From a virus, in the IMG/VR virus record IMGVR_UViG_3300007512_000031, positions 2,328 to 66,327 of that record: a stretch of DNA of 64,000 nt. One strand, given 5' to 3'. Below, in pieces: positions 8,663-63,896 of the stretch; positions within the stretch are counted from its first letter, which is position 1; each line of letters begins with the position of its first letter. The position numbers and the translations under genes are program-made. A model generated the notes under the pieces. It did no database searches. It was not told the origin of the DNA and worked only from the letters and a program-made list of their open reading frames with translations.

Positions 8663-8735
8663 CTTTTGCTCTCCTTGATTCCTTTGTTAGACCTCTATAG
8701 GTTTCCTTTTATATAGTAAATTGAATATTTTGGGG

Positions 8736-9857: not shown

Positions 9858-9925
9858 TGATTAATACTCCTTCGGTTTTCTTTAGTACATTTTTTATGTA
9901 TTATCGTATCAGTATGTATATTTTT

Positions 9926-10570: not shown

Positions 10571-10571
10571 T

Positions 10572-10910: not shown

Positions 10911-10911
10911 T

Positions 10912-12673: not shown

Positions 12674-14187
12674 TAGAATTCCTCGTCTTCTTCTCCATGT
12701 AACCCTTTGGATTTTTCATCAGACATTTGCTTGTCCATTTCAGAAATCTCATCTTCAGTTTGTTTTAATATATTTCTTCTAATCCATTCAATAGAGTAGT
12801 ACCTACCTATGTATTCATTTACCTCTCTCAACACTTCCATTCTTTCTTTAAGAATTTCTGATTCTTTTAGTTCGGTAAAATATGAATCTTTTGCATACTC
12901 AATGTATACTTTTTGGGAAATTTCTTTCCAATCATCAACAGTAATGATATTTTTCATTAAGAGTTGTGTTTTTAACAATTCCATGAATAAATCACTAAAT
13001 CGTTTTCGAAGTCGTTCAATAAACTTGAAGAATTTTAATTCGTCCCGTGTAATTTCGGCACTTCTTCCCATATTGAAACCATTTTCTGCATCAAGTCTTG
13101 ATGTTGGAACATGAAGCGAACGATACAGTTTCTTTTGGAAATATTCGACATCTTCCATTTCACCTAAGTTTTGACCACCATCAAGTGTTGAGATTTCTGT
13201 TCCTCTTCCACCCTCTCGTCTTGGAAGCCAATAATCTTCCAACATTGACATATGGCGTTTATCGTCTTTAATTTCACCTGTTGAAGCATCATATACTAGT
13301 TTGTTTCGATATCGATTCATGATATCTTTTAGATATTGTTCTGCTTTATTCTTTGGTAAGTTACCAACATCAATATAGAATATTCTTCGTTCAGGCGCTC
13401 TTGATATTCTATAAATCACTACAGCATCTTCAATCATTCGTAATTGATTGAGTGGTTTGATTGCTTTGTGTAAATGACCTATTACTCGTTTTCTTGTTCC
13501 ATCAAACAATCCCGAATTTACATAACAAATAGCATCTGGAGATACTTTAATCCCTTTTTGATCATATGTTCCATATGTGTATACTGAACCAGTTTTTTGC
13601 ATAGACTGGTCATACATGTAAAATTCTTTTACATCTTTAATAACCTCGATGCCGTCTTTATTTCGTTCTTTAATAACTTCACGAATTTTTCGAATCTTTG
13701 TTGGATCAATAGGTCTAACTTCTGTTATTCCTTTATTTCCGTTTTGACTATCGGATATAATATGAAAGTATAATCTTCCATCAATATACCATTTCTTAAA
13801 AATGTCATATGCTTTGTTATTAAAATCTAATAAAGAAAGAATATTATCAAATTCTTCATATATTTTATTTTTAACGGTATCTGATTGTTCATAATGGTCC
13901 ATTACTAATTTAACAGGAATACGATATTCATCGAATACAATAGCATCGTTGCAAACATCTTCAACTGCTTGTTCTACTTCAGGTTGTAATATCATAGTTC
14001 GGTAATGATTAATAAATCCTACTTCACTTTTGATATCTCCTTCTAAATCAAGATATGATCCGTAAAAACCCCCGGCTGTAACAACGGTTGCACCATCATC
14101 ATAGTCCGGGGATACGAAGGATTTTGCTTTAGTTGGTTCTTCGGTCTGTTTTGATTTCCCGAATTTAAATCCAAACAATTCTGGCAT
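12673..14187 (-). CDS. gp20: Portal vertex protein gp20
   Basis: WYIDGRLYFH, LHKAIKPLNQLRMIEDAVVIYRISRAPERRIFYIDVGNLPK, MLEDYWLPRREGGRGTEISTL. Confidence 0.98.
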   Translation of the reverse strand: MPELFGFKFGKSKQTEEPTKAKSFVSPDYDDGATVVTAGGFYGSYLDLEGDIKSEVGFINHYRTMILQPEVEQAVEDVCNDAIVFDEYRIPVKLVMDHYEQSDTVKNKIYEEFDNILSLLDFNNKAYDIFKKWYIDGRLYFHIISDSQNGNKGITEVRPIDPTKIRKIREVIKERNKDGIEVIKDVKEFYMYDQSMQKTGSVYTYGTYDQKGIKVSPDAICYVNSGLFDGTRKRVIGHLHKAIKPLNQLRMIEDAVVIYRISRAPERRIFYIDVGNLPKNKAEQYLKDIMNRYRNKLVYDASTGEIKDDKRHMSMLEDYWLPRREGGRGTEISTLDGGQNLGEMEDVEYFQKKLYRSLHVPTSRLDAENGFNMGRSAEITRDELKFFKFIERLRKRFSDLFMELLKTQLLMKNIITVDDWKEISQKVYIEYAKDSYFTELKESEILKERMEVLREVNEYIGRYYSIEWIRRNILKQTEDEISEMDKQMSDEKSKGLHGEEDEEF

Positions 14188-16908: not shown

Positions 16909-18576
16909 TTATATAGAAAAGAATGAACCTAAATTATCATCATCAGCATTTTGCCATATTGTACCATCAGCATCCACTTCATAGTCATCTTCAACACCAC
17001 TATTTATAAACCCAAAAGGTGTCATTTCAGATTCTAATTGTTCTAATTTTTCTTTATACATGGATTTTCTAACATCCATATTAAGCATATCTTTAAAATA
17101 TTGTTGTGTAGTACACCAAGCAAATAATACTAATGACATAACTAAGTCATCTGTGTGTCCGGCATCAGCCTCAAACGAATTTCTTTTGGAAATAAAAGAA
17201 ATAAGTTCATCTATGATATTAAAATCTTCAATAAGTAATTTATCTTCTTCAATTAAGTTTTTTAAGTTAGAACAACCCACTCGTTTTGTTGCTTGGGTAG
17301 TTCTCATACCTAACTGAGAACCACCTTTACCAAAACCACCATCTAGTGTTTGACCTTTTCTTCCACGAATGGTGGTCATAAGAATATGTTCATATTCAAA
17401 TTCACTATGCATTATATCTGCTACTTGACCTCCAATATCGTTAATTTCAATCATACAATATGCATCATTATATTGTTTGCATAATGAATGTACAACGGTA
17501 GGATATGTCATAGGAGAAAGTTCATTATTTCTAAAGGTTGCAACCACTTTAAATGGTTTATCATCGTGTGTGATGTCTACTAACACAAATGCATGATAAT
17601 CTAGCCCAGTTCCTCTTGCAACATCTACTCCCATAAAGTAAATATGGTCTTTTTCTGGTTTCTCGTAAATACAAAGTCCTTCGTCATTTTTGTGGATAGG
17701 AGTTTTATATGCCAAAGATTTTAATTTAGCAGAAGATATAAGGGTATTAATAGAACCGATGAAATCACAACCAAATTCGGTTCTAAATTGTTCTTCGCTA
17801 GTGTTTGCAATGGTTTCTTCTTTCCATTTAGCATCTCTGCCAGGCACATCCGACCAATGAACCTCAATCGGAATATAACTATTTCTCCCTTCAGTAGCAT
17901 CTACCCACATTCGGTAATACATGTTCAACCCTTTTGGGGTGGAAACAATAAGTACTTTTGTGGTCTTACCTGATGAAATTGTAGGATATACTGAACTGAA
18001 GAATTCTTCCGCAACCCCTTGCGGAACATAGGCAAATTCATCCATGAAAATCATATTGAATGAACCACCCCGAACAGCACTAGATGATGTTGCAGAAGCA
18101 AGAATTTTAGAACCATTTTCTAATTCAATTGAACCTTTGTTCCATTCAATGATTCCCTGCTGTATCCATTTTGGCAGATGTTCATATGCTAGTTTTAATC
18201 TTCCTAATAAATCTCTTGCTGTTGCCAATTTATTTGCAAGAATAGCAACATTGACACTTTCGTTGAATAGAACATAATGCAAAAGATATGCAATTACGGT
18301 GGTTGATTTACCACTTTGACGAGGTAATTTTGCAATCACAAACCTATTGTTGTGAATCTTTTCTACCATATTCGATTGAAAATCATACATCGAAAATGGC
18401 ATTAATCCTTCATCCACATTTACAATTTGAACATAAGTTTCAATAAAATATACAGGATCATTAGCACATTTCAAATATTCTTCAACTTGTTCTTTAGTAA
18501 AGTTGACAGGAACATCTGAAGATTTTAGATTCTTGTTTCCAAGATATGAATTATCGTCAATCGTCTTTCTGGGCAT
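16909..18576 (-). CDS. gp17: Terminase large subunit gp17
   Basis: YLGNKNLK, Walker A PRQSGKST, Walker B IFMDEFA, VSTPKG, RNase H-like DVARG and DDLVM. Confidence 0.98.
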   Translation of the reverse strand: MPRKTIDDNSYLGNKNLKSSDVPVNFTKEQVEEYLKCANDPVYFIETYVQIVNVDEGLMPFSMYDFQSNMVEKIHNNRFVIAKLPRQSGKSTTVIAYLLHYVLFNESVNVAILANKLATARDLLGRLKLAYEHLPKWIQQGIIEWNKGSIELENGSKILASATSSSAVRGGSFNMIFMDEFAYVPQGVAEEFFSSVYPTISSGKTTKVLIVSTPKGLNMYYRMWVDATEGRNSYIPIEVHWSDVPGRDAKWKEETIANTSEEQFRTEFGCDFIGSINTLISSAKLKSLAYKTPIHKNDEGLCIYEKPEKDHIYFMGVDVARGTGLDYHAFVLVDITHDDKPFKVVATFRNNELSPMTYPTVVHSLCKQYNDAYCMIEINDIGGQVADIMHSEFEYEHILMTTIRGRKGQTLDGGFGKGGSQLGMRTTQATKRVGCSNLKNLIEEDKLLIEDFNIIDELISFISKRNSFEADAGHTDDLVMSLVLFAWCTTQQYFKDMLNMDVRKSMYKEKLEQLESEMTPFGFINSGVEDDYEVDADGTIWQNADDDNLGSFFSI

Positions 18577-19066
18577 CGTCTTCTTCAGCCAAATTTTCTA
18601 TCTGTTTTGCATTATTTTTTACTAATTGTTGTAATTCTTTAGTCGAACCAACAAAAATAGATTGATTTGTTGTATTATGTTGATGAAGATTAACTTCTTC
18701 TTTTTTGATTTCTTTCATTTGTTTATGAAGTCCAATCAAATCTTTATTTGCTTCAGAAACTGTTTTGATAAGTTGTGAAACTACTTCATATGCTCTTGGA
18801 GTTTCACCTTCATCAGCAATAGTAAGAATCCCATCAATAGCAACAGTACCTTTATCAATGATTTCTTTAAGACTATCTCTGACATCTGTATAGTCTTTCT
18901 CTAAATGTATTTGTTTAATATTTTTCTTTTCAGAATCAGGAACTATAACAATTTCTGTTTCTTCTATTTCACATTCGAGAATTTCTGATTCAACATCAAT
19001 AGTTGTATCGTCTAATATATTAAGTGCTTCACCAATTCTTTCATCTACTTTCTTTTTCTTTGCCAT
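18557..19066 (-). CDS. gp16: Terminase small subunit gp16
   Basis: DYTDVR, PRAYEVVSQLIK, IFVGSTKELQQL; immediately upstream of gp17. Confidence 0.92.
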   Translation of the reverse strand: MAKKKKVDERIGEALNILDDTTIDVESEILECEIEETEIVIVPDSEKKNIKQIHLEKDYTDVRDSLKEIIDKGTVAIDGILTIADEGETPRAYEVVSQLIKTVSEANKDLIGLHKQMKEIKKEEVNLHQHNTTNQSIFVGSTKELQQLVKNNAKQIENLAEEDDAQKDD

Positions 19067-19075: not shown

Positions 19076-19546
19076 TTACTCCATAACATTATCATATAAA
19101 GATTGCAATGTTTCTAAAATCCATGCATTATAATTAACATCTGGATGTATGTTTCCATCATCAATTATATCTTTAAGTTTTTTCTTTGCTTTGTTAAGAT
19201 ATTTTATAGGGAGATAATAACCCACACCTTCACCCGGCACAGCAATTATATCACCTCCTTCTTTTCCCCAATTTACTAAAATATTTAAAATATGATTCCA
19301 ATCGTCTAAATCTGCACTTACAAATCCTTTAGCAAAAAATGGTATGCTATCTTTTATAATATTAATAATAGTATCTTTTGTGACGGACAATACATTATCC
19401 ATTTCATTTGGCGGAATATCCTTTACATTATATGGAATTTCTGAACCATCAGACATAATCTTAATAAGTCTACCATCGGGACCCACAGTAGATTGCATAT
19501 GTGTAATAGGAGGCAAAGATTCTAATAATTGTTTATATGATTTCAT
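19076..19546 (-). CDS. Hypothetical protein with a leader resembling the T4 capsid-targeting sequence
   Basis: N-terminus MKSYKQLLES resembles the T4 internal-protein CTS MKTYQEFIAE; inserted between gp15 and gp16. Confidence 0.7.
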   Translation of the reverse strand: MKSYKQLLESLPPITHMQSTVGPDGRLIKIMSDGSEIPYNVKDIPPNEMDNVLSVTKDTIINIIKDSIPFFAKGFVSADLDDWNHILNILVNWGKEGGDIIAVPGEGVGYYLPIKYLNKAKKKLKDIIDDGNIHPDVNYNAWILETLQSLYDNVME

Positions 19547-19558: not shown

Positions 19559-20389
19559 TTATGGGTTTGTATTATATGTATTCCCTGCATGGTCCATCGA
19601 AGCACCAAATACCCATTTAATATTATCTGAACTATAATCATCTATTGATGAAGATGCACCAGAAGGTCCAGTAACATATGTTTGTATGGTAGACAATGCA
19701 CCAGTTGCACCCGACAATCCACCACTTCCTGTAAATGCTTCAACATCCCAGAATGTGTTGTTGACAGTTTTTATTATCTTAGATGTCTTAACTGGACCAT
19801 AAACATAAGATTTTGCAATAAATTCAAAATCAAAATTAATATTTCTTCTAGTATCAAAATCTCCCTCATAATCTTCTGTAATTGAAGATGATTGTAATAT
19901 AATTGGAACATCAATGCTTTGGTGTAAACTGTTCATGTTTATTGTGACATTAAATTCTGGTGTGAAATATGGTAAAATTTGTTCTACAATTTGAAGACCA
20001 TCATCCATGTGTCGAACAAACGCAGATAACCTAAAAGAAAAATTATAAGGAACTTCTGCATAATCAAATGAAGTGCTGGATACTCCAGTAGAATCACTTA
20101 AAAATCGTTTACTCAGAGTATTTCGTTTTCTTTGTGCATCATAATCCATAGAAGTCAATTCAAAACCAAGACGAGGAAGTGTCATTTCAACTTTTACACC
20201 ATCAGATATAGAACTTCCTTCATATATTCTACGAATAAACTTTTCTTTTGGTCCATATGCAATAGGAATTTTAACTTTTTCCTTTGTAGAACCATCTGCA
20301 TTTTTTCTGGTGACATATATGTCATTAAAAAGAGAACCAAATGCAATTACTACATTTCTTACTGAATTATGATAAAATGTTGTAAACAT
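19559..20389 (-). CDS. gp15: Tail sheath stabilizer gp15
   Basis: FYHNSVRNVVIAFGSLFNDI, IPIAYGPKEKF, LPRLGFE, DDGLQIVEQILPYFTP, DYEGDFDTRR. Confidence 0.95.
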   Translation of the reverse strand: MFTTFYHNSVRNVVIAFGSLFNDIYVTRKNADGSTKEKVKIPIAYGPKEKFIRRIYEGSSISDGVKVEMTLPRLGFELTSMDYDAQRKRNTLSKRFLSDSTGVSSTSFDYAEVPYNFSFRLSAFVRHMDDGLQIVEQILPYFTPEFNVTINMNSLHQSIDVPIILQSSSITEDYEGDFDTRRNINFDFEFIAKSYVYGPVKTSKIIKTVNNTFWDVEAFTGSGGLSGATGALSTIQTYVTGPSGASSSIDDYSSDNIKWVFGASMDHAGNTYNTNP

Positions 20390-21339: not shown

Positions 21340-22083
21340 TCATCCTACCATAAAATCTGGTGGAAGTTCGTACATCAATTGTACATTTTCTTCTATCTTA
21401 TCAATTTCGGTTTGTGCTTGTTCTAATAATTCTCTGCCGTTGAAAGTAACCCCACCAGGCAATTGAATCCCTTCAAATTTTGAAAGGTTGGATGCCCATT
21501 GTTTTTTAAATAATGCAGTTACATAATTTTTAAGTAATCTGTCTTTATAAATTTCGGGATAAGTTTCTGGGTTTAATACAAGATAACCTTCTGCAACAAT
21601 ATAATCACCAACATTAAATTCTTCACTCCAGTCAGTATCAATTTTCAATTGATTTGTTACTCGACTAAATCTAATTGCTTTTTCAGGAGAAAGAATATCT
21701 TGAATAAGAGAAAGATGTCTTTTTGTGATATCATATTGTATCATTGATTGGTTTGGATTTCTTAATCCATAAAAATCATTAAGTGCCATTTGATATCGTA
21801 CATCGAACAAGTTCACTGTACCTTCACTTAATTGAAAGATTTTTGTAATTGAAATGATGTCATCTGAAATTGTAATATATTCATTGTCAATATCAGTTTG
21901 GGTCATTTCATGTTTTAGATATGTTCTCTCAACACCGTCAAAATGATATTCTGCGAAGAACTGTAGTGCATCGTCAATTCGATCTTCAAGTTGCGAGTCA
22001 TCGACATTGATTTCAATGACTGGCGCACCTAATCTTCTAAGTGCGAATTCTTTGAGTGTTGCTCTTGATGTTGGCTGTGCCAT
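21340..22083 (-). CDS. gp13: Neck protein gp13
   Basis: LRRLGAPVIEINVDD, YHFDG, QWASNLSKFEGIQLPGGVTFNG, YELPPDFMVG. Confidence 0.96.
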   Translation of the reverse strand: MAQPTSRATLKEFALRRLGAPVIEINVDDSQLEDRIDDALQFFAEYHFDGVERTYLKHEMTQTDIDNEYITISDDIISITKIFQLSEGTVNLFDVRYQMALNDFYGLRNPNQSMIQYDITKRHLSLIQDILSPEKAIRFSRVTNQLKIDTDWSEEFNVGDYIVAEGYLVLNPETYPEIYKDRLLKNYVTALFKKQWASNLSKFEGIQLPGGVTFNGRELLEQAQTEIDKIEENVQLMYELPPDFMVG

Positions 22084-53821: not shown

Positions 53822-54726
53822 GTGCTTTTGAAAAAGTTTGTAAACAAAAATCTTCTGCAAAGGCAGGTCTTAAAGGTCTTTCTCAGAAAGTAGCATCCCA
53901 GCGTGGACATAAAATCAAAAGACGATTAATGTTTCGTGGTGGAATAGATGCAAACAACTTTGATCCTAAGGATATTAGTGGATTAACTTTGTGGTTGAAA
54001 GCAGATTCATTATCTCAAACAGACGGTTCTGATGTTACAGAATGGACAGACCAATCAGGAAATGGAAATGATGTTAGTGTCCCATCAGATGCATCAAACC
54101 GACCACACTATACCACAAGTGTTATTGGAGGGAAACCTGCAATTTCATTTACAGGTTCGAATGACGAATATTTAGATTGCACAGGGCTAAGTAATTTCTT
54201 TAAAGATAATGATTATACTGTAATTGCCATGATTCAACCAGAATCTGTATCATCTGATCAACTAATTTTTGGAAGATATAAAACAACAGATTGGTCCAGT
54301 TCATCAAACAACAATTTAAACCTATTTGCAATGGGAATTAATAGTTCTTCTAAACCTATAATTATCGGTAAATCTCCATCCAACGATAAATCAGCCAGCA
54401 CCAGTTCAGTTTCAACTAGTACACCGTACATTTTTATTGCAAGATATAAGGATTCTTCTACAACTCAATGGAATTTTATAAATGGCACTAAAAAGGATAA
54501 AGAAACTGATTGGGCGAAAGGAACTTCTGCTCTTGCTGGTCAGCCTGTCATAGGTTTGCAGTATTCTACTGGTAGAGGTGGAACTAGTTATTACAATCAA
54601 TACACTGGATACCTTGCGGAATTAATAGTATATAATTCAACGATTTCTGAAAAGAATTTAAAAGCAGTACAGAATTATCTTGTGGATAGATACAGTTTAG
54701 GTAAAATGACTATACCACGGATTTAA
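53818..54726 (+). CDS. LamG/concanavalin-A-like domain protein
   Basis: PKDISGLTLWLKADSL...VTEWTDQSGNGND...PAISFTG...GYLAELIVYN...VQNYLVDRY is the typical pattern of this lectin-like domain. Confidence 0.8.
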   Translation: MSAFEKVCKQKSSAKAGLKGLSQKVASQRGHKIKRRLMFRGGIDANNFDPKDISGLTLWLKADSLSQTDGSDVTEWTDQSGNGNDVSVPSDASNRPHYTTSVIGGKPAISFTGSNDEYLDCTGLSNFFKDNDYTVIAMIQPESVSSDQLIFGRYKTTDWSSSSNNNLNLFAMGINSSSKPIIIGKSPSNDKSASTSSVSTSTPYIFIARYKDSSTTQWNFINGTKKDKETDWAKGTSALAGQPVIGLQYSTGRGGTSYYNQYTGYLAELIVYNSTISEKNLKAVQNYLVDRYSLGKMTIPRI

Positions 54727-55387
54727 AATTAAATTCTTTTTGATAACTGCGAATTGCTTTCAATAACTGCTTAACATAATTGATTGGGTTTGCTTCAAAC
54801 ACTTGACTTTCACCTTCTTCTGTCGCAATCATAATTACTATATTGTCAATCGGTGTTCCAGTCATCTCTTGCCACATAATGGCATATGCTGTTGCTTGCA
54901 TAAAGTAATTTTCAATATCTTCTTCTCGTTTGATTTTTGTCGAACCTTTGAAATCGATGATTGAAAGTTTACCTTTATATTCCCCAACACAATCTACACG
55001 ACCAGCCAATTCTAAAGTAGAAGACCACAGTGGAACTTCTTGTGCGTGTACATTATCGATATTATCTAGTTCTGGTTGCAGTTGCAAAAACAAATCAAGA
55101 ATTGGCAAATCTACTCTACCCTTATCTTTTTTCAGATTGAATTCGTTGTTAATATAATCCTCGATAAGAGAGTGGAGTTTGTTTCCACGATTCAACACTC
55201 TCCTAGATTCTGTGGGATTCTTCGCTCTCCATTCGGCAAAGAATTTTGATTTTTCCCAACCAGTAACAGTAGTCACCGAAGGATATGCACCTTCTGGTGT
55301 TTCATAAAATCTACTGCCATTTTGGTTTGTTGTTTTTAGATTGGTAAATTCTTCAATTACCACATGATTAAAGTTTTTCACATTCAT
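54710..55387 (-). CDS. PD-(D/E)xK exonuclease (Cas4/RecB-like, conserved in T4-like phages)
   Basis: YPSVTTV, RGNKLH, LAGRVDCVGEY, IIDFKGS, YFMQATAYA. Confidence 0.9.
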   Translation of the reverse strand: MNVKNFNHVVIEEFTNLKTTNQNGSRFYETPEGAYPSVTTVTGWEKSKFFAEWRAKNPTESRRVLNRGNKLHSLIEDYINNEFNLKKDKGRVDLPILDLFLQLQPELDNIDNVHAQEVPLWSSTLELAGRVDCVGEYKGKLSIIDFKGSTKIKREEDIENYFMQATAYAIMWQEMTGTPIDNIVIMIATEEGESQVFEANPINYVKQLLKAIRSYQKEFNFKSVV

Positions 55388-55434: not shown

Positions 55435-56463
55435 TTATTTCCAATATTTCAGCCAATCGTTTCTTTTGTTTTCCCAGTGTTTTGGTGTTCCTATTCCAAG
55501 CATTTTATCTATACTTGCTCTGGCGCCAGATGCAACTGGCGATGCAGGCATAGCAGTAACATAATTAGTTTCTTGAAGTGATTCCATAAACTGGCCAGTT
55601 GTAAATTTGTCTCGTTCTCTGTCCAAAATGTCTTTCAGTTGCACCTTGATAGCATCTGTATATTTGGTAACAAAATTTTGCGAATCTCTTGTTTGACCTG
55701 GCTGTAAAGGTGGCTGTTGCTCTTTTGCTTCTGGTGGAGCGGAAGGTTGATCCACCAACGATGCAGGGATTTCTTGTCCTTGCGGTGATCCCATTTCTGC
55801 TGTTTGTGGTCCCATTGTGAACGGCATTTTTGGACCAGTGGTCAATTGTTCTTCTGGTTTGGTTGACCGCATATGATGTCTAGGACTTTCGGAAGGAATT
55901 CCCATCCTTGCACCAAAATCGTCTGATGGTTTCATCTCTTGTTGTTCTGGTGCAGGTGGTTGTTGTCCCATCGGAGGCATTCCACCCATAGATGGCATTC
56001 CTGTTGGTGGAACTGGTGGAAGTCCTGGAAGTTCATCGAATGATGGTCTTCCTTCTTTTTCTTGTCCCATCATATCCATTGGAGGCATTCCACCCATATC
56101 CATTGGAGGCATTCCACCCATATCCATCGGAGGCATTCCACCCATATCCATCGGAGGCATTCCACCCATATCCATAGGTGGTTGTTTTGTTGCAGATTGT
56201 GCAAGAGTATCTAATCCAATATCCATACTCATAGCACCCGGCGCTCCAGTTTCTAAAGGTTTAACTTCACCCATTCCAAAAGGTTCTTGTACACCTGGAC
56301 CGGGTGATGGAACTTGAGGAACTTGTTGATTCATTGCACTAGCAACTCTTTGAGCCATCTGTGTAAACTTTTCTTCGTCTTCTCTGCGTTTATTAAATTG
56401 TTCCGTCATATCGACAGATGCAGTTTCAACTAAATTTTTCCAATTGTTTTTATCGATTCTCAT
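55435..56463 (-). CDS. Pro/Met/Gly/Gln-rich disordered protein, candidate internal head protein
   Basis: Probable start MRIDKNNWKNLVET at 56463 (GAGGA RBS, CATAAATA upstream); contains PPMDMGGM repeats. Confidence 0.7.
   Translation of the reverse strand: MRIDKNNWKNLVETASVDMTEQFNKRREDEEKFTQMAQRVASAMNQQVPQVPSPGPGVQEPFGMGEVKPLETGAPGAMSMDIGLDTLAQSATKQPPMDMGGMPPMDMGGMPPMDMGGMPPMDMGGMPPMDMMGQEKEGRPSFDELPGLPPVPPTGMPSMGGMPPMGQQPPAPEQQEMKPSDDFGARMGIPSESPRHHMRSTKPEEQLTTGPKMPFTMGPQTAEMGSPQGQEIPASLVDQPSAPPEAKEQQPPLQPGQTRDSQNFVTKYTDAIKVQLKDILDRERDKFTTGQFMESLQETNYVTAMPASPVASGARASIDKMLGIGTPKHWENKRNDWLKYWK
56071..56181 (-). repeat. 24-bp coding tandem repeat, about 4.6 copies (PPMDMGGM)
   Basis: Plus-strand unit CATATCCATYGGAGGCATTCCACC at 56071, 56095, 56119 and 56143, with a partial copy at 56167. 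Confidence 0.95.
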
Positions 56464-56479
56464 TGTTATCCTCTTATAT

Positions 56480-56929
56480 TTATGCTGGAACTGGTCCACC
56501 ATCTGGGTCTGGTGGAGTATTACCACCCCATCCATAGCCACCTTGTCCCCATTGAGCAAGAATGCTATTTAATCCGTTTTGATTCCATCGCCCACCGATA
56601 ACACCATTTACAGTATTCCAAGCATGTTGAACATATGGTGGATATCCCATTGCAGTCCAGTTAATCGTTTGTGGGTTTTGGAAATCTCCTTGCATATTTT
56701 GAAGCATTTCTATAAACCACATAAACCAATTTAGAATTCCTTGACCAATTGGTGCGTCTTCTGGAATGGGATTAGGCATATCAACAGGTGGGACCGATCC
56801 GCCAGGGGCAGTTTCTATTGGATATTTTGGTTTTGCGTTTCCATCTGGTACTTGCGGCCAATCTTCACTAATCATTTCTGGTGCTGAATATTGTTTTGCC
56901 CAATCGTAAAATGTTTCTTGCAATCCCAT
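56480..56929 (-). CDS. Hypothetical Pro/Gly/Trp-rich protein, candidate internal head protein
   Basis: Leader ETFYDWAKQYSAPEMISE is similar to EIFTNWAQQYGPPEILDE of 6692-7102. Confidence 0.7.
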   Translation of the reverse strand: MGLQETFYDWAKQYSAPEMISEDWPQVPDGNAKPKYPIETAPGGSVPPVDMPNPIPEDAPIGQGILNWFMWFIEMLQNMQGDFQNPQTINWTAMGYPPYVQHAWNTVNGVIGGRWNQNGLNSILAQWGQGGYGWGGNTPPDPDGGPVPA

Positions 56930-56933
56930 TTAA

Positions 56934-57362
56934 TTATCTCCTGTTTGTCCAGTCACCATAAGATGGCGCTGGAATAAATGTTTTTGGTTCTATTTGATGT
57001 TTTTCTAAACTTTGTTGAAGTTTACCTACAATTTGGCTATCTTTAAAACTTTTCAATGTATTAATGTAACCTTTTACTCTTTTTCTTTCTTCTGTATTCA
57101 TATTATTTAAAATTTGTTTCAACTGTGCTTCATCATAAGTATGATATAATTCTGGTAGAGAGTCCATAACATTTTTAAAATCATATGCATATGAATCTCG
57201 CCCCAATATGTTTACCGAACCCGTATCAGAAACAACTACATCAGAAGCACCAACACCTAATCCTGCAATACTTGTTGCGGAAAGGTTTGCGAATTTACCG
57301 TCTTCACCCTTTTCAGTAAGAAGTTCTCTTTGCTCTGATAAAAATGTATTGTACTGTTTCAT
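56934..57362 (-). CDS. Hypothetical protein with CTS-like leader
   Basis: N-terminus MKQYNTFLSEQRELLTE. Confidence 0.7.
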   Translation of the reverse strand: MKQYNTFLSEQRELLTEKGEDGKFANLSATSIAGLGVGASDVVVSDTGSVNILGRDSYAYDFKNVMDSLPELYHTYDEAQLKQILNNMNTEERKRVKGYINTLKSFKDSQIVGKLQQSLEKHQIEPKTFIPAPSYGDWTNRR

Positions 57363-57366
57363 ATAT

Positions 57367-57627
57367 TTAACTTAAAATTAGAATATCTGTTGCGGTAGTT
57401 GCAGCAGAACCATCAGTTGCACCGTGTATCGTATTTGTTGCGATGGAATATACCGAACCCGCAACAACATTCTTTAGAAGAACTTTTTGCCCACCATATG
57501 TTGTAAGTCCAATATCTCCTGATGCTCCTGCATAGATTGCTCTACCGTATGCTGTCTTGTCGCCTGCAAATGTTGCACCTGCGGCAATTCCTAAATCTTC
57601 TGCATTTTGATAACCTCTAAATGGCAT
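57367..57627 (-). CDS. Head-spike base-like small protein (RcGTA Rcc01079-like)
   Basis: RAIYAGASGDIGL...G..VLLKNVVAGSVYSI......TTATDILIL matches my recollection of that family's pattern; TATACATA upstream. Confidence 0.65.
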   Translation of the reverse strand: MPFRGYQNAEDLGIAAGATFAGDKTAYGRAIYAGASGDIGLTTYGGQKVLLKNVVAGSVYSIATNTIHGATDGSAATTATDILILS

Positions 57628-57660
57628 AGTATAATCTCCTGTTTACTACTCTATGTATAA

Positions 57661-59220
57661 TCAATACAGTTTACCGAATGGTCCATACTCATCACCGAAT
57701 TTTTCTGCCATAAACAGCAAATCAGAGAAAAACTTATCTCTTTTATCTTTAGTGAGTTTTTTGAGTATGACATATAAAAAATTGATTTGCATTAATTTTT
57801 GTTGTGCAAAGTTTGAATTCGCCACATATTGTAACTCTATGTTGTCTATAAATTCCTCTTTAGAACTAACACCTGTCGTCACTTTCTTGGAAATTCCCTC
57901 CCACATATCAGCATATAATTTCTTTTCTTTCTTAAATTCTGCTAAATCCCCAGGAAAAGCATTATGATCATTTGTGAACCCCTGCTTCTTATCGGATTTT
58001 GCACCAATGTTTAAATCTTTCATTAGTTCTCTTACCTTTTGAACTGGTGATTTACCCATTCTTGCTGCTGCTCTTTGTTTATCTGTCGGTTCAAATTTTA
58101 AACTCGACCTTTTATTTACCCCCTGAACACCTTTGATGGTAAATTCGTATGCATCTTTACCACCTTCTTTTAACCACAGTTTAGTTTCTTGAGTTGCCAT
58201 AGGTGGTTTGTTTCCAGATTTCATATTCAACCTACAAAGAATATTTGGTCCAACTTCATATTTAAAATCTCTTTTTAGTGTAAAATCTTTAAATTTTGGG
58301 TCTTCTACATTATATACTTTCCACCATGCACCTTGTTTTGGTTTGGTAATCTTTTTCAACGAAATACCAATAACTCTACCAGTGATAAACATTTTCTTTA
58401 GTACTTCATTAAGTACACCAATGTTCCCCGCACTGTTTTTTATTGTATTTGTAATATCTTCTTGCACTTTCTTTTGGTCTTTTACCAACCAAATATCAGC
58501 AGGATTCCAAGTATCTTTTTGCGATATACTATAATGCTTTTTGACAATATCTGTAATATAATCCATAAAACCCTTGGGAGAACCACGGTCATAGTGTTTG
58601 AATTCTGTCCAACCACCTCGTCGCGCTTCTTCTAACATTCGTCTACCCTGTGACATAAAAGATTCTTGCCAATCTGTATTATCTTCTATAATTGGATGAA
58701 CTTTTTTAAGTGCCGCATAAAATTGTTTATCTGCAACAACACAATCTGGAGTATCACCAGCCCATTTGCTATATGTTTTATTATCTTCTATTGCCCTTTT
58801 AATAAACAGCATCGATGCTTCTTCTTCAAACACCGTTTTTTCTGTAGAAGAATATGTTTTTGATGACGGACTATTTTCTCCACCGCCACTGTGTTTTTTA
58901 CCCGTTGCAATAAAACGAATCTTTTCTTCTTTTCCTTTTATCACAACAGACACTTCCAATTCTTTCTTACCTTGAATAAACACTGCTGTTTTTCTTTTCT
59001 TCAATATACCCCTGTCAATCACTTTGTCCCATACTGGATTTTTTGTACCATTGTATATCTTAATTTTATGGATTGCTCTAGGACTTGTCCTTTTTGCATA
59101 GAAAAACTCACCATTCTTCACTTTGTTGAAGAATGTTGCTTTGAGATTGTTGAACAAATCTCTTCCTAAATTAGAAGCATATTGAATTTCTTTTTTCGTT
59201 GAAATATCAAAAGTTGTCAT
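57661..59220 (-). CDS. Hypothetical protein, putative restriction-endonuclease-fold nuclease
   Basis: Basic 519-aa protein with KDTWNPADIWLV...VIGISLKK, resembling a PD-x(n)-SxK variant of the PD-(D/E)xK active site. Confidence 0.55.
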   Translation of the reverse strand: MTTFDISTKKEIQYASNLGRDLFNNLKATFFNKVKNGEFFYAKRTSPRAIHKIKIYNGTKNPVWDKVIDRGILKKRKTAVFIQGKKELEVSVVIKGKEEKIRFIATGKKHSGGGENSPSSKTYSSTEKTVFEEEASMLFIKRAIEDNKTYSKWAGDTPDCVVADKQFYAALKKVHPIIEDNTDWQESFMSQGRRMLEEARRGGWTEFKHYDRGSPKGFMDYITDIVKKHYSISQKDTWNPADIWLVKDQKKVQEDITNTIKNSAGNIGVLNEVLKKMFITGRVIGISLKKITKPKQGAWWKVYNVEDPKFKDFTLKRDFKYEVGPNILCRLNMKSGNKPPMATQETKLWLKEGGKDAYEFTIKGVQGVNKRSSLKFEPTDKQRAAARMGKSPVQKVRELMKDLNIGAKSDKKQGFTNDHNAFPGDLAEFKKEKKLYADMWEGISKKVTTGVSSKEEFIDNIELQYVANSNFAQQKLMQINFLYVILKKLTKDKRDKFFSDLLFMAEKFGDEYGPFGKLY

Positions 59221-59312
59221 GTGTTAGACTCTCCTTGTATATTTAGGAAAATGAAAAAAATAAGATGTATACATAAAAGTGTATTATATAAAAATAACAT
59301 GGAGTTTATTAT

Positions 59313-59822
59313 ATGACAACATACAAAAACAAACTTAGAACTGTGTTAAAAGAGTCTGTGGCTGATGTTCTTTTATTAGAACAACCATACAGAGATGGTT
59401 ATGTATTTCAACCTACCCCTACCCCACCTCCTACTATAACAGCAAGAGACCTAGAGATTGCTAAATATTCTGAAGACCCTGAACTAGACCCAGACGAACC
59501 TGAACTAGACGAACCAGATACTCCTGTAACCATACCGACTAATGGAGAAGGGCATGGATATAGTGATTGGGATGAGAATAGTAATAATAACTTAAACGAC
59601 CATGTAAATAACCTTGATACTCACAAACCAGGCGGACTTCCGTTTAATCTTGATATTGAAATTATTCCTTCCTGGATTGGCGGCCTCTTTGGGGAAAAAC
59701 AGACAAATGAATTGAATAGACTTATTACTCTAGGAAGAACTGAAGGTGATGCAAAATTCAATTTATTGTTATACAATTATAATCAACTACCACAAAAAGG
59801 TGGAGGTTCAGGAGGACCATAA
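59313..59822 (+). CDS. Hypothetical acidic/Pro-rich protein with CTS-like leader
   Basis: TATACATA at 59268-59275 and GGAG RBS; leader MTTYKNKLRTVLKESVADVLLLEQ. Confidence 0.7.
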   Translation: MTTYKNKLRTVLKESVADVLLLEQPYRDGYVFQPTPTPPPTITARDLEIAKYSEDPELDPDEPELDEPDTPVTIPTNGEGHGYSDWDENSNNNLNDHVNNLDTHKPGGLPFNLDIEIIPSWIGGLFGEKQTNELNRLITLGRTEGDAKFNLLLYNYNQLPQKGGGSGGP

Positions 59823-60397
59823 TGTCATTAAATAGAAAACAATATAATTTATCGGAACTTGTTCTTAAAAAACAATGGCATTGGAGTTGGGACTGTACAA
59901 ATCCCAATTACACATTATTCAACATCAAGACTCTTGATGACCATATAATACACATCTATGTTCAAAAACCAAGTGGACCTAAGAATGATTCTACAAATCC
60001 TGCCGGTGGAGTTGTTATTGTTCATAACGATACCGATACCACAACTATCGGAGAGCCTGTTAATATTTCTACAGACAAACACAATCAACTTGATGACCAA
60101 GTAATTAAAGTTGGTGGTCTTGATGTTCATATCACAAATGGTGATGTTGCAGTATTTAACGATGGTGTCCTAGTTGCAGCGCCAGACGATAAAGTAATAA
60201 CCATGCCATCTGGTGGAGAAGGTGAAATTTCTCTTGCTCCACTTCTTACAATACTCGGTACTCTTGCTGGTGGTGGTGGTGGTGGTGGTGGTGATATTGT
60301 TGGTGGTGGAGTTATTCCCGGCGGTGGTGGAGTTATTCCCGGCGGCGGCGGTGGTGGCGGCGGCGGCTTCTTACAGGCACCAGCAGATACACCATAA
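59822..60397 (+). CDS. Hypothetical protein with poly-Gly tail
   Basis: TAATG coupling to the upstream gene; beta-rich core, then GGG repeats. Confidence 0.65.
   Translation: MSLNRKQYNLSELVLKKQWHWSWDCTNPNYTLFNIKTLDDHIIHIYVQKPSGPKNDSTNPAGGVVIVHNDTDTTTIGEPVNISTDKHNQLDDQVIKVGGLDVHITNGDVAVFNDGVLVAAPDDKVITMPSGGEGEISLAPLLTILGTLAGGGGGGGGDIVGGGVIPGGGGVIPGGGGGGGGGFLQAPADTP
60269..60367 (+). repeat. (GGT)8 microsatellite plus 21-bp duplication encoding poly-Gly
   Basis: GGT x8 at 60269-60292; GGTGGTGGAGTTATTCCCGGC at 60302 and 60323; GGC/GGT run follows. Confidence 0.85.
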
Positions 60398-60423
60398 CAA
60401 ATATCAAAATAAAATCATTCAAT

Positions 60424-60455
60424 AAAAAAACCCCACTTTCAACGGTGGGGTTTTT
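60424..60455. terminator. Bidirectional Rho-independent terminator
   Basis: A7-CCCCAC...GTGGGG-T5 between convergent genes. Confidence 0.88.
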
Positions 60456-60478
60456 GTTTAGTTTAATATAAATTATTA

Positions 60479-61105
60479 TTATCGTCTGTTACGCCAATCA
60501 ATACCGTATGGATGTCCACTTTGAGTTGTCAGGTTTGGTCCACTGTGAGTTGTCGGGTTTAGTCCACCCCATGTGTCTGGTGAACCACCAAATTGGTCCC
60601 AATAGTTTGCATAAAAATTAGGATTTGGGCCTGGTGGACCTATAATGTCACTGGGGACTCCACCTTTTCCGCCACTTGGAAACCCCGGAGTTGTTGGCTC
60701 AAACTTGCCTGGTTTAAATTTTGGAGCAGGTGGCTTAGGAATACCATTTCCCCACGGACCAGAATTTTTACCAATGGTAGTTAAATTTCCTGGATACTTT
60801 GGTCTGTTTCCATATCCACTGTCGTCAACTATTACTGGTGAATGTGTTTGTAATGTACCCTTTGGAAGTCTTGGATACTTTGGTCTGTTTCCATAAGGTA
60901 TGTTGCTTGGGTCGCCATGATTCGGCGGAAATATATGTGGAGAGTGTGTTTGTAATGTACCCTTCATTCCTCGATATGCTTCTTCAAGGGAAACTGAATT
61001 CTGCCACGGTCGGACGGGTTCTGTATAATCTGCAACACCTTCTGTTTTTGCTTTTTCAGCAAGAGCAGAAAGATGATTTTTAAAATCGTTTAAGTAAAAT
61101 GTCAT
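60479..61105 (-). CDS. Pro/Gly-rich protein with internal repeats, candidate internal head protein
   Basis: TATACATA at 61141-61148 and GGAG RBS; leader ends SLEEAYRG; KGTLQTHSP x2 and YGNRPKYP x2. Confidence 0.7.
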   Translation of the reverse strand: MTFYLNDFKNHLSALAEKAKTEGVADYTEPVRPWQNSVSLEEAYRGMKGTLQTHSPHIFPPNHGDPSNIPYGNRPKYPRLPKGTLQTHSPVIVDDSGYGNRPKYPGNLTTIGKNSGPWGNGIPKPPAPKFKPGKFEPTTPGFPSGGKGGVPSDIIGPPGPNPNFYANYWDQFGGSPDTWGGLNPTTHSGPNLTTQSGHPYGIDWRNRR

Positions 61106-61252
61106 AGTTGTCTCCTATAGGATAATATTTGTATACACTTTATGTATAACAGCAATTATTTTCATAGAATCTCTAAGATGAATCGTCCGACATATAATCC
61201 GATAATAAAGCCAGAAACAATAACAACACCAGTTGCAATGTTTCCATAGACA

Positions 61253-62071
61253 CTACCGTTCATCCTTAATAGTTGCATGAGTCTCTTTATTCTCATTTTC
61301 TAATATCTCCATTTCTATCCAAACCAAATACTTTATGATAATAGTTGCAGAACATTCTGATATTACCATTTTATCATTAAACGCTTTTATCGCAACATAA
61401 TTACTAATAATTCCTACGACATATTCTTTGTTATCAAATTTAGCAAACACTCCACCACCAGAATCACCAGGCCAGACCGATGCAGGCCTCGGAATAAACT
61501 TCATATAATTTGGTTCTTCTATTACTGTACCAAAATACCTAAATACATTGGGTTTACTATATTTTTTGAACCCAAACGAATAACCGACAGTGGTGATGTT
61601 TTGATATCTTCTCATCCAATCCACGCATCCAATCGATGCTGGCTTATATTTTGAATCACACTCAAGAAATATCAATCCAATGTCATCCTGAATCCGCCCA
61701 AATGTTTTGTTGTAACGGGGGTGCAACACAATATCTTTGACTTTAATTTCTTCATCGTTTCCTATAGAAACAGAAAAGATATCTCCGTCATCGACACAAT
61801 GACCAGCCGTTAGAACTACATTTGGGCGGATAAGTATTCCACTTCCAATTAAATAACCATCTTCTAAGTAAAGACTGCATATAGACGGATATGGGTCATG
61901 TTCTTGTGTTGTTGGAACAAACCATTCATTCAAAAAACTAAATGTTGGGTTAGGTTTTTCTTCTACAACTATATCAGTAGATGTTTCTGGGGGCAGAGAT
62001 GTCTTCTGAGAGGTTTTACACCCACTAAATAATAATATAGTGACTGAGAGATACCTAAATAAGTTTTTCAT
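61253..62071 (-). CDS. Trypsin-like serine protease with lipoprotein signal
   Basis: Lipobox LFSG-C18; catalytic motifs LTAGHC, DDIGL, GDSGGG. Confidence 0.88.
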   Translation of the reverse strand: MKNLFRYLSVTILLFSGCKTSQKTSLPPETSTDIVVEEKPNPTFSFLNEWFVPTTQEHDPYPSICSLYLEDGYLIGSGILIRPNVVLTAGHCVDDGDIFSVSIGNDEEIKVKDIVLHPRYNKTFGRIQDDIGLIFLECDSKYKPASIGCVDWMRRYQNITTVGYSFGFKKYSKPNVFRYFGTVIEEPNYMKFIPRPASVWPGDSGGGVFAKFDNKEYVVGIISNYVAIKAFNDKMVISECSATIIIKYLVWIEMEILENENKETHATIKDER

Positions 62072-62124
62072 GCCCCTTCTATACTATTTAGGCTGAAATG
62101 TGAATCGTATTTGGCATTTTTATT

Positions 62125-62158
62125 AAAAAAGAGTAGATTTTTATGTCTACTCTTTTTT
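62125..62158. terminator. Rho-independent terminator (symmetric A/T tracts)
   Basis: AAAAAAGAGTAGA/TCTACTCTTTTTT inverted repeat with an 8-nt loop. Confidence 0.85.
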
Positions 62159-62176
62159 GTTTGTTGTATTAATTAT

Positions 62177-62884
62177 TTAAAACATCAATGGGTTTGCTTG
62201 ATTCCAGTCGTGCCATCGTTTCCATCTCTTATAGTCTTGCCGCCATTTTCGTAATGCATCTTCGAGAGCATCTCTATCTTGTGGTGTAAGTGTTATATTA
62301 CCAGGAATCATGTCATCCACACTCATAGGTGGCGGATCCATGAATCCACCCGGAACTCTTGGTGGTGGAGGAGTTCCTTTTAAGGGATTAGGCCAACCTA
62401 TTGGTAGAGCAGTTCCTCCATAGGAACCACCCTGACCTACTGCTTCACCTAATTTTGACATCCATTTAGTAGGATTTGTGTTCGGTTCTTGTTTTTGAAT
62501 CGGAAGTTGCTGGTGGTCTGATTCACCACCACCACCGGGTGGAGTGTCATGGACGCCACCATTATACCAATATTCCCACTGACCTGTGTCCCAATTGAAC
62601 CTCTTGTAATACCAACCATATTGATCCCATATCAAATGCCAACCTTTACCCTGTGGAACATCACCACCACTCTGTCTTATAGGTTTACCCCACTTGTGGG
62701 TAGGTTGACCATGTTCATCGTATGTCACACCCGTATCAATATCTGAATATCCTTGCTCTTGTAATGCCTGGTAATATCCTGCACGATATGCTTCGTCAAG
62801 TTGCGTCTGTGTCGGTGCAGTATTTGCCTGTTGCAATCTACTTTGTGTGCTTTCTGAAAGTTGGTCCCATTTTGGTTGAATCAT
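62177..62884 (-). CDS. Hypothetical Trp/Tyr/Pro/Gly-rich protein, candidate internal head protein
   Basis: TATACATA at 62909-62916 and GGAGA RBS; leader contains LDEAYRAGYYQALQEQ. Confidence 0.72.
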   Translation of the reverse strand: MIQPKWDQLSESTQSRLQQANTAPTQTQLDEAYRAGYYQALQEQGYSDIDTGVTYDEHGQPTHKWGKPIRQSGGDVPQGKGWHLIWDQYGWYYKRFNWDTGQWEYWYNGGVHDTPPGGGGESDHQQLPIQKQEPNTNPTKWMSKLGEAVGQGGSYGGTALPIGWPNPLKGTPPPPRVPGGFMDPPPMSVDDMIPGNITLTPQDRDALEDALRKWRQDYKRWKRWHDWNQANPLMF

Positions 62885-62957
62885 TTGAATCTCCTGTGTT
62901 CTTTCTTTTATGTATATATTTTACCCCTTTGGATAGAACAAAGGTATGTATAATATT

Positions 62958-63476
62958 TTAAATTTCGTTAAAGTTTATATTCTTCTTTCGTAATAATCCA
63001 TAGTCATTTGTGATTCCTCTAAATGCGTATGGATTATCAAATTCTAGTGTTGTATCCTCTGCTTCTGGAGTTTCTGGTTTCGATGACCAATTGTGTGTGG
63101 TGATATATGGTCGAAGTTTAAAAGATGTATTCAAACCACTCGGAGTTTCATCCGAACCAGTTTCTGTTTCTGGAAATCTCCAATTCGTTTGTACATCTAT
63201 TGGTTCTACTTCTCCATCAGGAATTTCTGGAAGACCATGAAGCCATTTGTAGTACCATCCCCAATCTTCTCTTTCATCAGCATATTCGTCTGGGTCATGG
63301 CCAATGTCACCATCGCCAACAAAACCTGGACCAGCATTTTGCCAAGGATTTTCAAATGAACCATCGTCATTGCCCAAACCACTAACCAATCCTTGTGGTG
63401 TAGAAATACCTTGAATGTAATCCGGCTTCCTTCTCGGCATCCACTGTTCTTTGATGTAACTATTGAAACTTAACAT
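62958..63476 (-). CDS. Hypothetical acidic protein with CTS-like leader
   Basis: N-terminus MLSFNSYIKEQ. Confidence 0.7.
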   Translation of the reverse strand: MLSFNSYIKEQWMPRRKPDYIQGISTPQGLVSGLGNDDGSFENPWQNAGPGFVGDGDIGHDPDEYADEREDWGWYYKWLHGLPEIPDGEVEPIDVQTNWRFPETETGSDETPSGLNTSFKLRPYITTHNWSSKPETPEAEDTTLEFDNPYAFRGITNDYGLLRKKNINFNEI

Positions 63477-63580
63477 TAGAATTTTGCACCATGTCTAGCC
63501 GCAATTGCATAAGCGGTGTGTGGTATACCACTTTGTTCGTTTATTATTTCTCCCCGTAAGTATTGTTTAAAATGTGACAT
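63476..63580 (-). CDS. 34-aa micro-ORF with CTS-like leader
   Basis: Below the ORF-track cutoff. Hand translation MSHFKQYLRGEIINEQSGIPHTAYAIAARHGAKF*; GAGAG upstream and TAATG coupling to the next gene. Confidence 0.6.
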   Translation of the reverse strand: MSHFKQYLRGEIINEQSGIPHTAYAIAARHGAKF

Positions 63581-63593: not shown

Positions 63594-63896
63594 TTAGTGT
63601 GGTTTCAAATGACCACTTGGTTTCATGCTTGCAGATGCTTCTATATTTCTTTTCGCTACACGATTCACAACAGGCGAATTGGCAATTTCATTCATTCTTC
63701 TATTAAAACCAGGACACATTTTGTCTGGTGTTAATTTTGCATCAGCACCTGTAATTGGAACACTGATACCTTTTCTTACTTTCTTCGCATTACATTCTGG
63801 ACAAGGATTATTCAAAGGTTCATCTCTTTTGTCTACACTTGAAAGTAATTCAAAATTATGTTCACACGATTCACAATGGTATTCATATAATGGCAT
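63594..63896 (-). CDS. FmdB-family zinc-ribbon protein
   Basis: MPLYEYHCESCEHNFE...PCPECNAKKVRK (two CxxC motifs). Confidence 0.85.
   Translation of the reverse strand: MPLYEYHCESCEHNFELLSSVDKRDEPLNNPCPECNAKKVRKGISVPITGADAKLTPDKMCPGFNRRMNEIANSPVVNRVAKRNIEASASMKPSGHLKPH

Follow-up and report, generated by a model that had tools for sequence, protein, structure and literature searches.

A gene array with putative T4-type capsid-targeting leaders in an uncultured Kyanoviridae-type myovirus

The capsid targeting sequence (CTS) of the internal proteins of phage T4 was reportedly described by Mullaney and Black (1996), and Repoila (1994) is said to be the source for the hotspot of internal-protein (Ip) genes in T-even phages. 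We analyzed a 64,000-nucleotide stretch of virus DNA (the window; bases 2328-66327 of one 66,327-base contig, IMG/VR record IMGVR_UViG_3300007512_000031) that contains an 8-kb array, at 55435-63580, in which putative CTS-type leaders stand in front of unrelated protein bodies. In the T4 CTS, residues 4 and 7 serve targeting and residues 8 and 10 processing, and the T-even internal proteins are described as basic (passages of PMC9026906). T4 Ip1-3 each block one GmrSD-type restriction enzyme, and the hotspot of T2/T4/T6-type phages holds at least 10 different internal proteins, three of which inhibit GmrSD-type restriction (passages of PMC12373910). By description, the giant phages phiKZ and SPN3US also contain many head-internal proteins with N-terminal propeptides that a diverged gp21 homologue cuts after a short motif ending in Glu; these are ejection or inner-body proteins of another phage group, with another motif (passages of PMC9026906).

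The window array resembles T4 IPI-III in its N-terminal tag of about 10-19 residues (aromatic at position 4, aromatic or hydrophobic at 7, Leu or Ile at 8, and Glu at the predicted cut), in the presence of a gp21-family protease gene in the same genome, in the unrelated bodies behind one tag, and in clustering in a variable locus. Like the T-even hotspot, it is a hypervariable tag-plus-cargo array at a fixed genomic position, with mutually dissimilar cargoes. It differs from T4 in belonging to a phage of another, Kyanoviridae-type family, in the residue after the cut (usually Gln, against Ala in T4), and in a second, longer leader family that T4 IPI-III lack. The bodies are mostly acidic, rich in Pro, Gly and aromatic residues and probably disordered, whereas T4 IPI-III are small, basic and folded. 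An anti-restriction role is known for the T-even hotspot, whereas the analysis of the window gave no sign of modified DNA, of GmrSD-type targets or of anti-restriction. The window set has five strong members and as many as 14 possible ones in a single genome. A preliminary description made from the letters of the window had called this set much larger than that of T4, which holds against the three genes of T4 itself but less so against the T-even phages taken together (at least 10 proteins) or the arrays of relatives (4-7 genes).

On sequence grounds the source is an uncultured T4-like myovirus of the Kyanoviridae type, with a gp23 about 55% identical to the capsid proteins of Synechococcus, Prochlorococcus and Pelagibacter myoviruses (now Kyanoviridae). 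Head, neck, tail and baseplate genes lie on the window; outside the capsid, protease and tail-tube families, their roles were assigned from gene order and size. The 8-kb array is the main slot of tagged genes, and single slots adjoin the protease, capsid and terminase genes. Three head genes bear directly on the leaders:

7232-8662, minus strand: major capsid protein gp23, predicted maturation site ALQE/Q at residues 47-50 (nucleotides 8513-8524)
8736-9857, minus strand: probable gp22-type scaffold, named by position and by how neighbouring genes are annotated in relatives; rich in internal [LIVM]-x-E sites
9926-10570, minus strand: gp21-type prohead protease (phrog_207, head maturation protease, E = 9e-82), the enzyme expected to trim the leaders

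A strict regular expression, M-x-x-[YFW]-x-x-x-[LIVM]-x-E, was fixed from the T4 ipII/ipIII leader (MKTYQEFIAE/A in both genes of NC_000866, with a slash for the cut; ipI reads MKTFKEF...ITE/A). Applied to T4 (50 kb, 458 Met frames), it returned ipII and ipIII only. In the source genome it matched 4 of 800 ATG frames, three of them gene starts (62958, 56934 and 10912; genes are named here by their lower coordinate), against a chance expectation of 0.09 gene starts in 69 (probability of three or more, about 1e-4). The fourth match was an internal Met of open reading frame (ORF) 16909-18576, the large terminase by gene order. We also used an external profile of 18 leaders, all from other phages; these leaders had been picked by the regular expression, so only the free columns of the profile are independent. 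The profile ranked the starts at 63476, 11205, 19546, 63580 and 57362 first to fifth among the 800 ATG frames (63476 being the start of gene 62958-63476, and 63580 that of the short ORF 63476-63580), and the start at 59313 tenth. With the free columns alone, 19546 came first, 11205 fifth and 63476 ninth; 63580 and 57362 fell outside the top 15.

The T4 register was exact in 62958, 56934 and 10912, one residue short in 19076 (but exact in its homologues), and ipI-like in 63476 and 59313. It was not matched by 55435, 56480, 59822, 60479 and 5554, which satisfied only a loose rule, namely an aromatic residue plus [LIVM]-x-E within about 23 residues. The window leaders retain the key CTS residues at positions 4, 7, 8 and 10. 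Codons vary from leader to leader although the residues stay the same, which argues for selection on the peptide. Judged in this way, the candidate genes fall into strong (first five), moderate (next four) and weak (last five) grades (aa, amino acids):

62958-63476, minus strand: 172-aa orphan with an acidic Trp/Tyr-rich body; leader MLSFNSYIKE/Q, strict CTS; regular-expression match, profile rank 1 of 800; no Pfam or PHROG family
63476-63580, minus strand: 34-aa ORF; leader MSHFKQYLRGEIINE/Q (F4, Y7, L8; late site like that of T4 ipI); rank 4 of 800; predicted mature part of 19 aa; stop overlapping the start of the next gene
56934-57362, minus strand: 142-aa orphan; leader MKQYNTFLSE/Q, strict CTS; regular-expression match, rank 5 of 800
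19076-19546, minus strand: 156-aa protein; leader MKSYKQLLE/S; rank 3 of 800; between ORFs 19559-20389 and 18557-19066 (tail-sheath stabiliser and small terminase, as taken from gene order)
10912-11205, minus strand: 97-aa protein upstream of the protease; leader MKNYQQRLQE/AYKAGYCRAMNE/Q, strict CTS plus second leader module; rank 2 of 800
59313-59822, plus strand: 169-aa acidic orphan; leader MTTYKNKLRTVLKE/S...LLLE/Q; rank 10 of 800
10572-10910, minus strand: 112-aa Met/Pro/Gly-rich protein; leader MNYGHINFITE/Q; directly before the protease gene, the T4 gp68 slot
62177-62884, minus strand: 235-aa orphan; long leader ...WDQLSE/S...LDE/AYRAGYYQALQE/Q, then a Gly/Trp/Tyr/Pro-rich body; leader module in common with 6692 and 10912
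6692-7102, minus strand: 136-aa protein encoded downstream of the capsid gene; three L-N-E sites in a long leader, Pro/Gly-rich thereafter
60479-61105, minus strand: 208-aa basic Pro/Gly-rich orphan; loose leader MTFYLNDFKNHLSALAE/K; loose rule only; no family
59822-60397, plus strand: 191-aa orphan with Gly runs; loose leader MSLNRKQYNLSE/L; loose rule; tandem GGT-type repeats
56480-56929, minus strand: 149-aa acidic Pro/Gly/Trp-rich orphan; leader ...MISE/D; loose rule; N-terminus like that of 6692 (BLASTP over residues 4-27, E = 6e-4)
55435-56463, minus strand: 342-aa Met/Pro/Gly-rich orphan; leader MRIDKNNWKNLVE/T..DMTE/Q; low-complexity similarity to 10572
5554-6003, minus strand: 149-aa acidic orphan; leader ...VLKE/A..YLSE/Q; the same slot in related contig L002 holds a different tagged ORF

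The ORFs and N-termini named in the preliminary description are all present, with two starts moved: gene 55435 most likely begins at 56463 (MRIDKNNW...) and gene 10912 at 11205 (MKNYQQ...). Its claims that the leaders match the T4 CTS in register and that a gp21-family protease accompanies them were borne out, and the profile check that it had proposed placed five window starts at ranks 1-5. Its count of about fifteen leader genes was too generous, since five are strong, four moderate and five weak.

The capsid protein carries the matching site that had been claimed for it. ALQE/Q lies 30 residues ahead of the conserved VRRAMP motif, is retained in the related contigs L001-L003, and has the same residue (Q) after the cut as the leaders. 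T4 gp23 presumably has a site, FLTE/A, at a similar distance from VRRAMP. The form [LIM]-x-E/Q is common to the capsid protein and 9-11 leaders; those of moderate grade (59313, 10572, 62177 and 6692) are longer and end in this same site. Throughout the 69 genes, [LIVM]-x-E-Q occurred 13 times in the first 55 residues (3763 residues) and 12 times in the other 17,520, a 5-fold excess (Fisher p = 1e-4), and 12 of the 13 N-terminal sites belong to the capsid protein and the candidate genes. A long leader, L-x-E/AY..G....[LM]-x-E/[QR], recurs in 62177, 6692 and 10912 and, in L001-L003, in the gene lying downstream of that for the capsid protein. Behind this module the sequences diverge into Gly/Pro-rich stretches, and in 10912 it is fused directly behind the strict tag. 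The homologues of 10572 in L001 and L003 start MNLYEKYILVE/Q and MNLFEKYNLISE/Q.

These leaders bear on the possibility that packaging is restricted to the five or six canonically tagged genes, those Pro/Gly/aromatic-rich products whose leaders are loose or long being ordinary late proteins with another role, in which [LIVM]-x-E is incidental. The background of the loose rule, 12% of decoy frames (90 of 733) and 18% of other genes (10 of 55), favours such a restriction, as does its failure to predict virion presence in the cyanophage S-CREM2 (see below). On the other side stand the enrichment of the loose rule in the array (9 of 12 array ORFs versus 14 of 57 elsewhere, p = 0.0015), the concentration of N-terminal [LIVM]-x-E-Q sites in the capsid protein and the candidates, the long leader common to three window genes and three relatives with bodies that differ beyond the site, and the fusion of that module to a strict tag in 10912. 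We consider a restriction to the canonical genes rather unlikely. The loose rule marks the array as a region and proves nothing for any single gene, and the earlier general definition of the leader by [LIMV]-x-E has the same standing: it captures the array enrichment, but decoys and other genes also fit it.

Tagged proteins are present in the published virion proteomes of two relatives, S-CREM2 and S-SCSM1. In purified S-CREM2 virions, 52 of 221 ORFs were detected (passages of PMC10665884). We searched S-CREM2 (OR473000) with a variant of the regular expression that also allowed F at position 8 and included GTG and TTG starts. Eight of 4841 candidate start codons fitted, of which four were annotated gene starts, and all four products had been detected in virions (hypergeometric p = 0.0028):

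ORF6: SAM hydrolase, MKDFDSFLEE, in the virion proteome
ORF14: kinase, VKRFDAFLTE, in the virion proteome
ORF136: MQTFSMFFSE, in the virion proteome
ORF154: cytidylyltransferase, MKNFSSFLTE, in the virion proteome

ORF136 lies just after the sheath-terminator gene, a slot comparable to that of 19076, and has no sequence similarity to the 19076 protein. The virion-detected NMNAT of S-SCSM1 starts MKSFLQFLKE/A (one of two tagged genes there was virion-detected), and the cytidyltransferase of S-ShM2 starts MKKFSTFISE/A. These cyanomyovirus virion enzymes (NMNAT/cytidylyltransferase, kinase and SAM hydrolase) have the same strict tag as the window genes and occur with clusters of virion-detected proteins of no assigned role; they are recognisable proteins of 286-755 aa, whereas the window cargoes are orphans without domains. 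The authors of the S-CREM2 study question the true packaging of its SAM hydrolase, kinase and cytidylyltransferase (passages of PMC10665884), and in both proteome papers it was left open whether such enzymes are contaminants (passages of PMC10665884 and PMC9602691). The parts of these two papers that we consulted mention no targeting tag, and the words 'internal' and 'propeptide' occur 0 times in the consulted text of PMC10665884. We found no paper tying the CTS to cyanophages or marine T4-like phages in a literature search that left subscription journals and supplements outside, and the relevant passages of two reviews contain nothing on internal proteins in these phages.

A further tag-like sequence, ..LRFASFMAE/A, was seen in S-CREM2 ORF12 (7704-10313, minus strand), a virion-detected 'Cas9-like nuclease', 16 residues inside the annotated start; the annotation may misplace the start, or this leader may be unusually long.

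For comparison with relatives, we used nine related IMG/VR contigs, whole or in part, and 80 capsid-gene flanks (916 kb). Tagged arrays were found in two of the nine contigs (G002 and G004) and in the deposited phage C48C1. G002 (locus L089) has six strict matches at 4.5-13.4 kb, with cargoes of 140-771 aa that have no Pfam family, and a seventh, variant leader at 3468. Most of its tagged genes (3468-13392) have ATAAATA-type late-promoter letters 5-8 nucleotides before the ATG and no visible Shine-Dalgarno sequence, an arrangement that suggests leaderless or nearly leaderless late transcripts. G004 has four tagged genes directly after a homologue (7872-8132) of the gene at the head of the window array:

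63594-63896, minus strand: FmdB-type zinc-ribbon gene (phrog_385), without leader, a synteny marker

The common zinc-ribbon neighbour indicates that the position of the array is conserved and its content is not. In the complete genome of C48C1, tagged genes lie at 61.8-71.8 kb after an 'exonuclease' gene. Four matched the DNA pattern, against 0 controls, and two more variant leaders were recognised by eye; all six are annotated as hypothetical. The leaders include MMLDFKNFITE/Q, MLSFKQFVSE/V, MITFKKYLEE/K and MKKFKQYIDE/G, and several of the proteins are small and visibly Lys/Arg-rich, like those of T4. A test in related genomes, also proposed in the preliminary description, was positive in G002, G004 and C48C1 and negative in seven of the nine contigs, all of them fragments. 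Turnover of the cargoes is also seen in a tblastn search of about 1.7 Mb of related DNA: 14 of 24 queried proteins had no match at E 1e-3, and of the 14 leader-bearing genes 10572 alone had one. The 56934 protein had no relative in the viral contigs searched. Megablast of the array against 50,697 phage records gave no nucleotide match.

A 225-aa ORF (54710-55387) flanks the window array, and the 225-aa 'exonuclease' of C48C1 (OQ984149.1, 59843-60520) flanks the tagged array there. The likeness is one of length and position, and relative to the direction of this gene the arrays seem to lie on opposite sides in the two phages.

The bodies behind the leaders were as unrelated as had been claimed, all-against-all BLASTP giving almost no similarity beyond the common leaders and low-complexity stretches. 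They were also mostly Pro/Gly-rich or acidic: the predicted mature parts had 20-33% Pro+Gly in 11 of 14 cases, versus 12.5% in the proteome, and an isoelectric point (pI) below 6 in 11 of 14, three being basic. In the 55435 ORF, a 24-nucleotide tandem repeat at 56071-56175 (4.4 copies, 98% identical) encodes PPMDMGGM, and the near-identity of its copies suggests recent expansion. Pfam and PHROGs gave no family for nearly all cargoes, and hence none belonging to the T4 internal proteins for most of them, and no cargo had a domain or fold match. Two PHROG hits, spore-coat for 56934 (E = 0.0016) and tail-fibre for 57367 (E = 0.0028), were below or near threshold and were set aside. In Protein Atlas models, the predicted local distance difference test score (pLDDT) was 0.40 for 56934 and 0.51 for 62177, with no usable feature matches and with all structure rows below a template-modelling (TM) score of 0.35. 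From composition and these models, the cargo bodies are probably mostly disordered, as had been proposed.

The 19076 protein departs from this picture. Its AlphaFold2 model is mainly helical at moderate confidence (mean pLDDT 66.5, predicted TM score 0.63), with a few short strands near the N-terminus and the first 17 residues disordered. Foldseek found no match to the model in the PDB (best E 0.39, TM 0.26 or less), so no function can be read from the fold. Four homologues with 52-55% identity all start MK[SNT]FKQ[HY]LNE/S, the exact T4 register. A close-relative search of viral contigs gave nothing for this protein, and a profile search of its family in 1.84 billion representatives returned its own cluster only.

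Tagged proteins could also be core or scaffold accessories of the prohead, like T4 gp67 and gp68, that give the core its shape or filling and are lost before or during DNA packaging, with no injected payload. Four genes, 10572, 10912 and the following two, occupy the gp67/gp68 slot between the portal and protease genes:

11202-11504, minus strand: 100-aa protein whose tail is acidic and Asp/Ser-rich; matched in 21 related loci
11501-12673, minus strand: 390-aa protein with 14 internal [LIVM]-x-E sites

The last two look like core proteins in that slot. These genes resemble gp67/gp68 in being small genes between portal and protease with L/I-x-E sites, and the acidic tail of 11202 is like that of gp67; the closest relatives retain the Met/Pro/Gly-rich 10572 protein, and the window cargoes are acidic like gp67. 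In contrast, T4 gp67 and gp68 have no IP-type N-terminal tag, whereas 10912 and 10572 have one, and sequence similarity is absent: BLASTP gave no alignment of 11202 with T4 gp67 and only E = 0.21 for 10572 with T4 gp68, leaving gene position as the match. According to the consulted passages of one review, cyanophage genomes lack gp67 and gp68. Each mature body contains 0-2 internal [LI]-x-E motifs, so the bodies would survive the protease, and the array proteins would stay at 8-35 kDa instead of becoming small peptides. The leader-bearing genes also turn over far faster than core genes, and the mature virions of both S-CREM2 and S-SCSM1 contain tagged enzymes. For the tagged genes as a whole we regard the loss of such accessories from the head as unlikely; it is more likely for the genes beside the protease.

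It is very improbable that the leaders carry no protein signal and reflect a translation-start or recombination cassette that moves genes through the locus, or chance, for although the locus is hypervariable and T4-type genomes do shuffle genes by way of conserved promoter cassettes (passages of PMC4122927 and PMC2839356), the leader codons differ while residues 4, 7, 8 and 10 are kept, the tag is retained in homologues at 52-55% identity and occurs on unrelated virion-detected enzymes, and only 0.09 matches per genome are expected by chance.

Of the late-type promoters that the preliminary description had given to many of these genes, candidates in a variant form were found for some. The T4 consensus late promoter TATAAATA occurred 14 times versus 8.4 expected (3 of 100 shuffles reached 14; not significant), once near 6692-7102 (at 7136-7143) and nowhere in the array, and TAYATAWAA was not significantly enriched. 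ATACATAWAA had 8 matches versus 1.19 expected (0 of 100 shuffles reached 8), at positions including 9892, 19572, 22120, 59269 and 62906. It stands 22-46 nucleotides upstream of 59313, 62177 and 19076 and of ORFs 8736-9857 and 21340-22083 (presumed scaffold and neck genes). In the array it reads ATACATAAAA both at 59269-59278, 35-44 nucleotides upstream of 59313, and at 62906-62915, before 62177-62884. In S-SCSM1 the same letters stand before the gene of the virion-detected NMNAT, and in G004 the zinc-ribbon gene has a similar ATACATA ahead of it; ATACATAWAA may serve this phage group as a variant late promoter. Sigma-70-like sites were not enriched in the array (32 versus 34 expected).

With these alternatives weighed, we think it likely that the prohead core takes up the tagged proteins, that the gp21 homologue trims them and that they are retained in the head. 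The short N-terminal tag of T4 type would bind the scaffolding core. Cleavage by the gp21-type protease would then follow the Glu of [L/I/M]-x-E, with Gln as the usual next residue in this lineage, and the mature proteins would remain in the capsid with the DNA. For the window phage we infer core binding, cleavage and retention, as well as ejection and a function after entry; by analogy with T4, the proteins are perhaps injected and may have some role in the host.

Several results weigh against import and retention. Five of the 14 leaders satisfy only the loose rule, with its background of 12% in decoys and 18% in other genes, and in S-CREM2 that rule did not separate detected from undetected proteins (11 of 52 versus 15 of 129 with our own gene calls, p = 0.11), for which reason it was not used as evidence for single genes. 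The strict expression found no tagged genes in seven of the nine related contigs, which are fragments of 17-63% estimated completeness. In the 80 capsid-gene flanks, also fragments, it gave 24 matches in 10,732 Met frames, only two of them at first Mets. The tagged ORF30 of S-SCSM1 (106 aa) is not flagged as a virion protein, and the virion-proteome support as a whole comes from the relatives S-CREM2 and S-SCSM1, the window phage being uncultured. Among the mature parts only 60479, 63476 and 10912 are basic, whereas the T-even internal proteins are described as basic, so that the small basic body of T4 internal proteins is not a feature of the window cargoes. Late expression of the array is plausible, its timing being read from a promoter-like motif only.

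The matches in the capsid-gene flanks have one main source. Thirteen of the 24 were a single recurrent internal motif, M..W...[IV].E-A-E, in homologues of the conserved ORF 846-1472 (minus strand; homologues in 13 related loci). This motif mimics the regular expression and accounts for most of the false tag matches in related contigs.

Three array ORFs are without a leader, namely 57367 and the following two:

57661-59220, minus strand: 519-aa conserved cyanophage hypothetical protein (phrog_1462), among the array genes
61253-62071, minus strand: trypsin-like serine protease (Pfam Trypsin, E = 5.6e-13) with a lipoprotein-type signal peptide (..LLFSGC)

The trypsin-like protein has a homologue in G004 (32% identity), and a phage protease that is secreted or periplasmic is unusual in such an array. 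Strong hairpins, each with a T run behind it, at 60426-60455 (between the convergent genes 59822 and 60479) and at 62124-62159 (between 61253 and 62177) are likely terminators, which would split the array into at least three transcription units.

A broader reading, which we offer tentatively and rate below an even chance, is that the T4 import tag is an ancient, portable label found across the divide between T-even and Kyanoviridae-type phages, where it marks hypervariable arrays of proteins injected with the DNA. Here it would be borne by a dozen acidic, disordered proteins rich in Pro, Gly and aromatic residues, which would act collectively, as filler, condensate or decoy, in the capsid or the host, and not as folded inhibitors. 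What is new relative to T4 is the other phage family, the Gln after the cut, the second leader family, the number of genes, and the acidic, apparently disordered cargoes, which, if packaged, would be head-internal proteins of a type for which T4 provides no described example.

The main interest of the tag is that it could serve generally to predict which proteins abundant marine phages package. If it works as in T4, the proteins that marine T4-like phages carry into Synechococcus, Prochlorococcus and Pelagibacter could be predicted from sequence, and a ten-residue pattern would be enough to list them. This would explain why NMNAT-like enzymes, kinases and SAM hydrolase recur in cyanophage virion proteomes, and it would make the hypervariable arrays a place to seek new counter-defence and host-takeover proteins.

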